Notes: generated from the letters alone by a model not told the origin. Shown: positions 28,586 to 28,815, counted from the first letter of the stretch. The stretch: 64,000 bases of DNA from Patescibacteria group bacterium (GCA_023229665.1 JALNYW010000002.1:92988-156987); one strand, 5' to 3'. Program-made: numbers and translations.

Positions 28586-28614
28586 TTGACGAGGTTCCGC
28601 CTTGGCGGGATATT
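28586..28614 (+). promoter_or_regulatory. orphan promoter TTGACG-17-GATATT
   Basis: No ORF follows. It precedes the structured region 28621-28815. Confidence 0.45.
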
Positions 28615-28620
28615 GGAGGG

Positions 28621-28815
28621 GCCGGTGTGAGAATTCGGGACAACCTTTCGACTCTTAGGGTCTGGACGGCGCACCCGCCTTGGCGGGGGAGCGAGGACCC
28701 TGGGCGGCACAAACCATTTCCTTCAACGCCTGTCCTGGTTTCGACTGGGACGCGCGTCTCCGGTTTGGCCTCAAGCCCCATTGCGATGAGCCGAATGTCT
28801 CACATCGGTTTTTTG
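28621..28815 (+). ncRNA. candidate ~195-nt structured ncRNA (rod-like, 6S-like architecture; family unassigned)
   Basis: 17-bp closing helix CCGGTGTGAGAATTCGG (28622-28638) / CCGAATGTCTCACATCGG (28791-28808) followed by T6. Internal hairpins AGGGTC...GACCCT and CCCGCCttgGCGGGG. No credible ORF. Confidence 0.45.

Follow-up and report, generated by a model that had tools for sequence, protein, structure and literature searches.

What could be the purpose of a promoter that stands in a gap between convergent genes, is followed by no credible reading frame and soon runs into a stop signal? The question is raised by a 64,000-nucleotide (nt) stretch of a Patescibacteria genome (C18:92988-156987 of genome G000, 1.34 Mb, 57% GC), all of which we call the window; positions given without a contig name are counted from its first letter. 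Patescibacteria (the candidate phyla radiation, CPR) account for much of bacterial diversity, and to our knowledge their gene regulation is almost unstudied and very few non-coding RNAs are annotated in their genomes. An initial annotation had placed at this spot a rod-like RNA, possibly akin to 6S RNA. We argue that positions 28621-28814 of the plus strand are, to near certainty, a stand-alone, vertically inherited and highly structured small RNA gene (and not read-through from a neighbor), and that it belongs to an RNA family that is, again to near certainty, not catalogued in Rfam 15 and that occurs in Candidatus Uhrbacteria-like Patescibacteria, very small and uncultured bacteria of groundwater. 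As to what the RNA does, an enlarged and branched version of 6S RNA is the reading that we think most likely, with a probability of roughly 45%.

The case for a conserved RNA is carried by its relatives. All five other genomes of the genus contain a counterpart that is 71-80% identical, and a covariance model built from these six sequences (R1) scores 191.7 bits at 28621-28814, the single copy in the genome. Of 121 genomes of the family, 79 contain one full-length match to R1, and no more than one; they represent 28 of its 33 genera. When 68 sequences are aligned to R1 (our main covariation set), 90.4% of pair cells form standard pairs, compared with 36-48% (maximum, 47.5%) when the partners are slid by one to three columns; 52 of the 59 pairs change on both sides, and there are 710 double-change cells against 223 in shuffles, with none of 500 shuffles reaching the observed value. 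The initial annotation had made its proposal depend on a covariation-backed structure in relatives, and here it is. Because the 68-sequence alignment is itself fitted to R1, two independent checks were added: a structure-blind MAFFT alignment of the 5' domain, folded with RNAalifold, gives the same long hairpin (P2 below) with compensatory change in 11 of 12 pairs, and an all-against-all covariation scan ranks 15 pairs of the model at the top. The same scan was inspected for extra tertiary pairs, and its remaining signals look like shared ancestry (e.g., columns 21-61).

The features of the locus, one per line, are as follows.

28557-28579, plus strand: intrinsic terminator of the upstream 453-aa gene (hairpin 28557-28573, GAGACC-CTGAC-GGTCTC, then T6)
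28586-28614, plus strand: sigma-70-type promoter (-35 box TTGACG at 28586-28591, 17-nt spacer, -10 box GATATT at 28609-28614)
28621-28814, plus strand: RNA gene of ~194 nt, with a predicted start at ~28621 (7 nt past the -10 box) and a predicted end in the T-run
28621-28638, plus strand: 5' strand of the closing stem P1, GCCGGUGUGAGAAUUCGG (helix 1 of the model; 96.3% paired, compensatory change in 12 of 18 pairs)
28639-28650, plus strand: 5' junction or "bubble" strand, GACAACCUUUCG (family consensus GCUAAAAUUCGG)
28646-28654, plus strand: putative switch segment or "copy 2," UUUCGACUC, which nearly repeats the 5' strand of the inner P1
28651-28708, plus strand: P2, a long irregular hairpin (helices 4-6; 92.7%, 68.3% and 99.4% paired)
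28719-28764, plus strand: P3, a second hairpin (helices 7-10; 75.5-91.8% paired, compensatory change in all pairs)
28765-28790, plus strand: 3' junction or "bubble" strand, GUUUGGCCUCAAGCCCCAUUGCGAUGAG, whose terminal GAG (28788-28790) is part of the alternative helix
28791-28809, plus strand: 3' strand of P1, CCGAAUGUCUCACAUCGGU, with CCGAA at 28791-28795 common to P1 and the alternative helix
28809-28814, plus strand: T6 run directly 3' of P1, the predicted transcription stop
28837-28856, minus strand: terminator of the convergent 471-aa NHL-repeat-like gene, the right-hand boundary of the RNA unit

Is this really a gene of its own? The RNA unit is set apart from the upstream 453-aa gene because the terminator at 28557-28579 intervenes, and on the other side the 471-aa NHL-repeat-like gene (28863-30278, minus strand) runs toward it. 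Between 28300 and 29100, there is one promoter-like site only, TTGACG-17-GATATT, where shuffles have a mean of 0.3. That terminator and that promoter had both been called in the initial annotation, as had the pairing of the RNA's ends followed by a T-run, and all of these hold. From the promoter and the T-run, we infer the two ends of the gene. The signals are kept in relatives, as one expects of an independent unit and not of 3' read-through: a TTGAC-type -35 box and a -10 box (CATGCT, TATAGT, GATATT or similar) lie upstream of P1, at a constant spacing from it, in most of the 68 homologues, and four or more T residues directly follow P1 in 36 of them. Many of the homologues that have no direct T-run extend the stem instead, 5' GUCUGGAG and 3' CUCCGGAC, and/or carry a separate hairpin terminator. 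One subclade (e.g., L086, L090, L097, L102 and L105) does both, lengthening the closing stem by GUCUGGAG / CUCCGGAC and replacing the T-run after P1 with a separate canonical terminator, and the one RNA family therefore has two termination designs.

A coding role, which the initial annotation had already doubted, can be rejected. The two open reading frames that overlap the RNA, 28627-28869 on the plus strand and 28446-28781 on the minus strand (80 aa and 111 aa), have no Pfam match, and close relatives of the RNA differ by 1-2-nt indels that break the frame, which is why we take the stretch to be non-coding. The plus strand folds at -86.9 kcal/mol (z = -3.4 against dinucleotide shuffles, with none of 200 shuffles as good) and the minus strand less well, at -76.5 kcal/mol (z = -2.3). 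The invariant G-U and U-G pairs of P1 and P2 also fit the plus strand only; on the opposite strand, they are A-C mismatches.

What does the molecule look like? Its ends, 28621-28638 and 28791-28809, pair over 18-19 bp with one bulged G (28797) and conserved G-U pairs. Across the family, P1 is ~20 bp long, its inner part, GAGGAUUCGG / CCGAAU-N-CCUC, is nearly invariant, and so in particular is the inner 5' strand, GAGRAUUCGG. A pyrimidine always follows 1-3 nt past P1 in the 5' junction, where the unpaired conserved bases are GCUAA in most members and GACAA in this genus. P2 is ~60 nt in the family, with two internal loops and a tetraloop (CUUG, CGUG or UGUG). In this genome, it consists of a G-U-rich basal extension, a 6-bp core (the GGGUCU/GGACCC region), a 6/3-nt internal loop, 2 bp (GC/GC), a 3/3-nt loop and a 5-bp apical stem (CCCGC/GCGGG), capped by CUUG at 28679-28682. 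P3 varies in sequence and length and has long insertions in some relatives. The 3' junction spans 20-30 nt in the family and carries a small hairpin, P4, in 37 of the 68 sequences (e.g., GCUCA-CUUG-UGAGC). The modeled structure is therefore a three- to four-way junction and not a rod, and here the initial annotation has to be revised. It had drawn a long-range inner helix, GGACGGCGCACCC / GGGACGCGCGTCTCC, through the middle of the RNA, and across the 68 homologues, only 52.2% of its cells are paired (53.3% in shuffles), with no excess covariation; each segment instead folds locally, one in P2 and the other in P3.

How far does the family reach? A second covariance model, R2, made from 59 sequences and confined to 94 positions of the 5' domain, finds the RNA in 14 of 14 genomes of the family within a class-wide sample, three of which R1 had missed, as well as six weak matches, which are spread over five further families of the class (E from 4e-5 to 9e-4). 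In four of these matches (L127, L128, L130 and L132), a closing stem of 35-45 nt encloses P2, a long P3 and a small P4, ordered as in the family, and because these distant matches keep the architecture, the RNA family extends past the Uhrbacteria-like family. Detection of distant members is limited by sequence divergence. Whole-RNA matches within the family range from 182 to 252 nt. None of this is visible to the standard catalogue. Rfam 15 (4227 families), searched at gathering score over the window, has no match at the position of the RNA and none at E <= 10 in 28450-28950, and when 20 homologues were searched at E <= 10, no family matched at the position of the RNA. The Rfam comparison proposed in the initial annotation, for 6S, signal recognition particle (SRP) and other RNAs, thus comes back empty.

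The part of the RNA that suggests a function is the segment at the end of the 5' junction, UUCGGYUC, a near-copy of AUUCGG in the inner P1 5' strand. This segment has two mutually exclusive partners, and both pairings covary. In pairing (a), it joins GGGCGGC at the 3' foot of P2 to form a weak, G-U-rich extension of that hairpin; in pairing (b), it joins GARCCGAA, which is the inner P1 3' strand plus the three bases upstream. Pairing (b) excludes both pairing (a) and the inner part of P1. For the RNA in the window, this means that 28646-28654 can pair with 28788-28795 (the alternative helix) or partly with 28702-28708 (the P2 extension). Pairing (a) is 86.4% paired, with 18 double-change cells against 5.7 in shuffles. 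Pairing (b) is 86.7% paired, with 27 such cells against 6.1, and controls in which the partner is slid are at most 59% paired. Two of its column pairs illustrate the point: at 42-436, C meets G in 15 of 15, and at 45-433, the pairs are CG in 41, UA in 8, UG in 5, AU in 2 and GC in 1. The duplex of pairing (b) has a mean energy of -9.3 kcal/mol, compared with -3.5 when partners are shuffled, and for 47 of the 68 sequences, no more than 5 of 200 shuffles do as well. The distant homologue L128 has changed both strands of the alternative helix together (UUUGGUUGA / UCAACCAAA), and P1 is altered there too.

How might such an RNA work if it acts on RNA polymerase, as a 6S-type RNA does? Polymerase binding, the synthesis of a product RNA and the trigger of the switch we infer from the architecture. 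P1 would play the downstream duplex, the conserved unpaired strands beside it would mimic the bubble of an open promoter and the irregular P2 would play the upstream duplex, and the housekeeping RNA polymerase would be caught by all of these parts acting together. A short product RNA would then be copied from the nearly invariant strand ...GAGRAUUCGGG(C/A)Y (the P1 5' strand, 28621-28638), and this synthesis would pry the inner P1 apart. Its 3' strand, GARCCGAA, once free, would pair with the duplicate UUCGGYUC (masked in the resting state, one may suppose, by the weak G-U-rich extension of P2), and the bubble would collapse. The 3' bubble strand would accommodate P3 (and P4 in the members that have it), which would make the RNA a branched, enlarged variant and no textbook 6S rod.

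Several observations support this proposal. The RNA is a stand-alone small RNA with a conserved housekeeping promoter and with a T-run or terminator after its stem. The genus, moreover, has no canonical 6S RNA that we could find: RF00013, run over the six whole genomes, gives only one 11-bit match, elsewhere. Other observations weigh against it. The 6S models (RF00013, RF01685 and related ones, 6S-Flavo included) leave the RNA below the curated threshold, and neither it nor any of the 20 homologues matches even at E = 10. The closing stem, the junction strands and P2 are there, but every member, including the distant ones, has the extra arm P3, which is backed by covariation (45 nt in this genome), P4 is often extra as well and the long-range helix that would make a rod is unsupported. 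In this genome, the alternative helix (28646-28654 / 28788-28795) is weak, at -7.1 kcal/mol with one A-C mismatch, and 12 of 200 shuffles match it. The invariance of the inner P1 and the junction would fit a binding site for a protein or a ligand equally well, and a bistable design is not peculiar to 6S RNA. Of the earlier suggestion that the RNA is 6S-like, then, the closing stem, the unpaired junction strands, the apical hairpin and (newly) a helix of the collapse type stand, and the rod shape and any match to a curated 6S model do not. Because the tests of model score and rod shape both fail, we file the RNA as perhaps 6S-like in function and not as a member of the 6S family. A literature search for 6S or SRP in Patescibacteria, Uhrbacteria and Parcubacteria found nothing relevant.

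Could the same design serve something other than the polymerase? One can imagine a bistable structured RNA specific to the CPR, whose two pairings would be toggled when a protein, a small ligand or another RNA binds at the invariant junction and the inner P1; it might be the core of a new ribonucleoprotein, a trans-acting sensor or a ribozyme. We regard this as the main rival and a genuine possibility, short of even odds. It would account naturally for a four-helix junction with an extra arm in all members, for a near-invariant junction (GAGGAUUCGGGCUAA / GARCCGAAU), for two covarying and mutually exclusive helices and for the lack of likeness to any of the 4227 Rfam families, and it would suit a lineage whose gene set is unusual in that SRP GTPases are entirely absent (see below). 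Yet no co-occurring candidate for the partner gene was found, the neighbors ndk, mntH and tRNA-Phe look like inherited gene order and not a functional module, and the 6S model already explains the closing stem, the bubble, the apical hairpin and the collapse-type helix. The strong form of the idea, that the RNA is no 6S orthologue but the core of a CPR-specific bistable ribonucleoprotein or sensor, whose junction GAGGAUUCGGGCUAA / GARCCGAAU binds a partner other than the polymerase and toggles the helices, we consider rather unlikely. More speculative still is a version in which the RNA serves a pathway rebuilt after the loss of Ffh, FtsY and SRP RNA.

Compared with these two accounts, a role for the RNA as an appendage of some neighboring gene is improbable. 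Such a role (the 3' untranslated region of mntH or of the 453-aa gene, a leader of tRNA-Phe, an RNA antitoxin or another regulator of a neighbor) is suggested by how close the neighbors lie. In the window, the order is ndk (25265-25804), mntH (Nramp; 25900-27159), the 453-aa gene (27205-28566), the RNA and tRNA-Phe (at 31580), and the order ndk - (mntH) - (453-aa gene) - RNA - tRNA-Phe is conserved among relatives. The RNA lies 18-51 nt past mntH in most of 12 loci and 50-96 nt past the 453-aa gene in 9 loci, and tRNA-Phe adjoins it, or lies within ~1 kb downstream, in 23 of 29 loci. The upstream neighbor, however, varies among mntH, the 453-aa gene and ndk, which directly precedes the RNA in other loci, including two genomes of another family (L130 and L132); the tRNA-Phe may be in either orientation; the next gene in this genome is convergent; and the RNA has a conserved promoter and a stop signal of its own, with a terminator dividing it from the upstream gene in this genome. 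The gene order looks inherited and does not look like a functional module. The initial annotation had thought of an antitoxin or regulator for an RSH-like gene upstream, and neither half of this survives. The 453-aa protein has no match to RelA/SpoT or to any other family, and its gene stands upstream in only 9 of 30 loci, whereas the RNA is family-wide. A riboswitch or other cis-regulatory leader was rejected as well: the next gene is convergent, the stop comes directly after the closing stem and the tRNA-Phe is found in either orientation.

The neighbors themselves deserve a few remarks. The 453-aa protein (27205-28566, plus strand) matches no Pfam, NCBIfam or PDB sequence, and in 9 of 30 related loci, a homologue of 446-476 aa (one cut at a contig end) fills the slot that follows mntH and precedes the RNA; this is a conserved protein family of unknown function. 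The orientation of tRNA-Phe(GAA) flips between genomes, even inside one genus (loci L031-L059), which suggests repeated small inversions of the tRNA gene. Two inserted genes separate the RNA from tRNA-Phe in this genome. One lies between the NHL-like gene and tRNA-Phe, in the block that separates the RNA from tRNA-Phe in G000 only; it encodes a PurM-like protein (30273-31511, plus strand) with AIRS and AIRS_C domains that scores 188 bits against TIGR00878, below the curated cut-off of 236.

Is it possible that the RNA fills a different housekeeping post, that of the SRP RNA? RF00169 and RF01854 find no acceptable match in any of the six genomes of the genus, and because of that vacancy, a very divergent SRP RNA (of the 4.5S or small cytoplasmic RNA type) was a serious candidate. 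There is some likeness: as in bacterial SRP RNA (4.5S; RF00169 / RF01854), the two ends pair and one hairpin is interrupted by two internal loops and capped by a tetraloop, and P2 loosely recalls helix 8. The tetraloop, however, is CUUG, CGUG or UGUG and not GNAR, the AGCA loop motif and the other conserved loop motifs are missing and the models of the SRP clan, even at E <= 10, match neither the RNA nor the 20 homologues. The proteins with which an SRP RNA works are lacking too, and because the lineage has neither Ffh nor FtsY, we exclude this identity, to which we assign only the slightest chance.

The absence of these proteins is worth setting out. PF02978 (the M domain of Ffh) has no match in G000, and PF00448 (the GTPase domain of Ffh and FtsY) has none in the 6 genomes of the genus, in 34 of the family (33 genera) or in 30 genomes of 29 other families, with controls found in 14 of 14; this amounts to 70 genome searches over the genus, family and class sets, and 66 genomes of the class were sampled in all. 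No SRP-type (DTAGR-motif) GTPase turns up when all six reading frames of G000 are scanned for the motif. In tblastn searches of G000 and of G010, a complete genome in a single contig of 1.03 Mb, E. coli Ffh reaches at best E = 0.36, whereas the S16 and Ndk controls are found, with the reservation that the Ffh query had no positive control of its own. A weak Ffh-like match at C18:67473-67802 was rejected as a spurious antisense frame. The usual surroundings of the genes tell the same story: at G000:C21:692000-701000 (L133), no ffh precedes rpsP, with trmD and a KH-domain gene on the opposite strand, and the gene that adjoins rpsP, a short SMC-like one (751 aa), has no ftsY in its vicinity. Because the rpsP and smc neighborhoods contain neither ffh nor ftsY, both usual slots for SRP genes are empty in this genome. 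As far as genome searches can tell, the whole SRP pathway seems to be missing from the lineage, and we found no paper that reports its loss there.

That the unit is a non-functional or mobile relic (a miniature inverted-repeat transposable element, a retron msr-msd or a decayed gene) is scarcely credible: its 18-bp terminal inverted repeats, and its place in a high-GC block that was read as an island in an earlier note, might recall one, but it is a single copy per genome, keeps its syntenic position across genera and families, has compensatory changes that preserve RNA pairs (including G-U pairs, which are mismatched at the DNA level) and has nearest neighbors (mntH, which is Nramp, and the genes for the 453-aa and 471-aa proteins) with no reverse-transcriptase or transposase Pfam domain.

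Two well-known RNAs were also considered and rejected. An RNase P RNA of type A is found elsewhere in all six genomes of the genus (171-183 bits; the G000 copy is at C18:68631-69073), and transfer-messenger RNA is located elsewhere in the window (55385-55788). The window also holds a second orphan promoter-to-terminator unit, at 36800-37176 on the minus strand, ~335 nt long and upstream of tRNA-Pro. It has no Rfam match at E <= 10 and a multi-branched predicted fold (-138 kcal/mol, z = -2.3), and it is not the RNase P RNA, which lies at C18:68631-69073.

Some repeats within the locus are curious in their own right. The 12-mer CGCCTTGGCGGG occurs in two exact copies (0.04 expected), at 28598-28609 in the promoter spacer and at 28676-28687, where it forms the apical hairpin of P2; part of P2 is thus duplicated in the spacer of the RNA's own promoter. 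The copy in the spacer is specific to this genome; the other genomes of the genus do not have it. The duplication could be due to chance or to gene conversion, or it could mean that some P2-binding factor has a second site in the promoter. TTTCGACT is present at 28646 and 28739. Both duplications had been seen in the initial annotation, which put the second copy of the first motif at 28675 and the first copy of the second at 28647, each one nucleotide off.

Why should one care about ~194 nt in an obscure genome? An RNA family with strong covariation, overlooked by standard annotation (Rfam 15), is now defined, together with its architecture and a testable switch. If the RNA is truly of the 6S type, then the promoter-mimic design tolerates an extra arm in its bubble, and regulation by 6S RNA extends to ultra-small, episymbiont-like bacteria; if it is not, then a new class of bistable housekeeping RNA has come to light. 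In both cases, the covariance models could help to annotate such genomes. The absence of SRP GTPases from the 66 sampled genomes may matter even more than the RNA.

It remains to place the RNA among known systems. The raiA motif RNA is an orphan structured RNA of ~200 nt that was found by comparative genomics. Orphan RNAs of its kind differ from ours in fold, sequence and phylum, and no Rfam family of this sort, all of which were searched, matches, but they are alike in being ~200 nt, multi-stemmed and strongly covarying, in forming a unit of their own and in having neighbors that tell one little. Known 6S RNAs are essentially rods. Two groups of 6S or 6S-related RNAs bear comparison. Ms1 RNA is a 6S-related RNA of Actinobacteria that binds the core of RNA polymerase (PMC9130861). 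Our RNA resembles Ms1 as a structured stand-alone small RNA, larger and more branched than the 6S rod, in a lineage with no detected canonical 6S RNA; the differences lie in the size of Ms1 (~300 nt), its restriction to Actinobacteria and its binding of the core enzyme, and homology was compared through the Rfam search alone, which gave no match.

With 6S RNA itself (SsrS, RF00013), the differences are the ones already weighed, together with a junction and an inner P1 that are far more invariant than is usual for 6S RNA and a P4 that often branches off the junction as well. The likenesses are these: a stand-alone small RNA of ~190 nt with its own sigma-70 promoter, 5' and 3' ends that pair over ~20 bp to close the molecule, conserved strands left unpaired where this stem gives way to a long irregular apical hairpin and, in many members (37 of 68 here), a small hairpin in the 3' bubble strand. 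In the 6S-1 RNA of Bacillus subtilis and the 6S RNA of Aquifex aeolicus, a "central bubble collapse helix" forms after the synthesis of a product RNA has unwound the bubble-proximal helix, whose 3' strand then pairs with the 5' bubble strand at its far end (PMC8876501). Pairing (b) of the RNA described here has the geometry of that collapse helix (PMC8876501).

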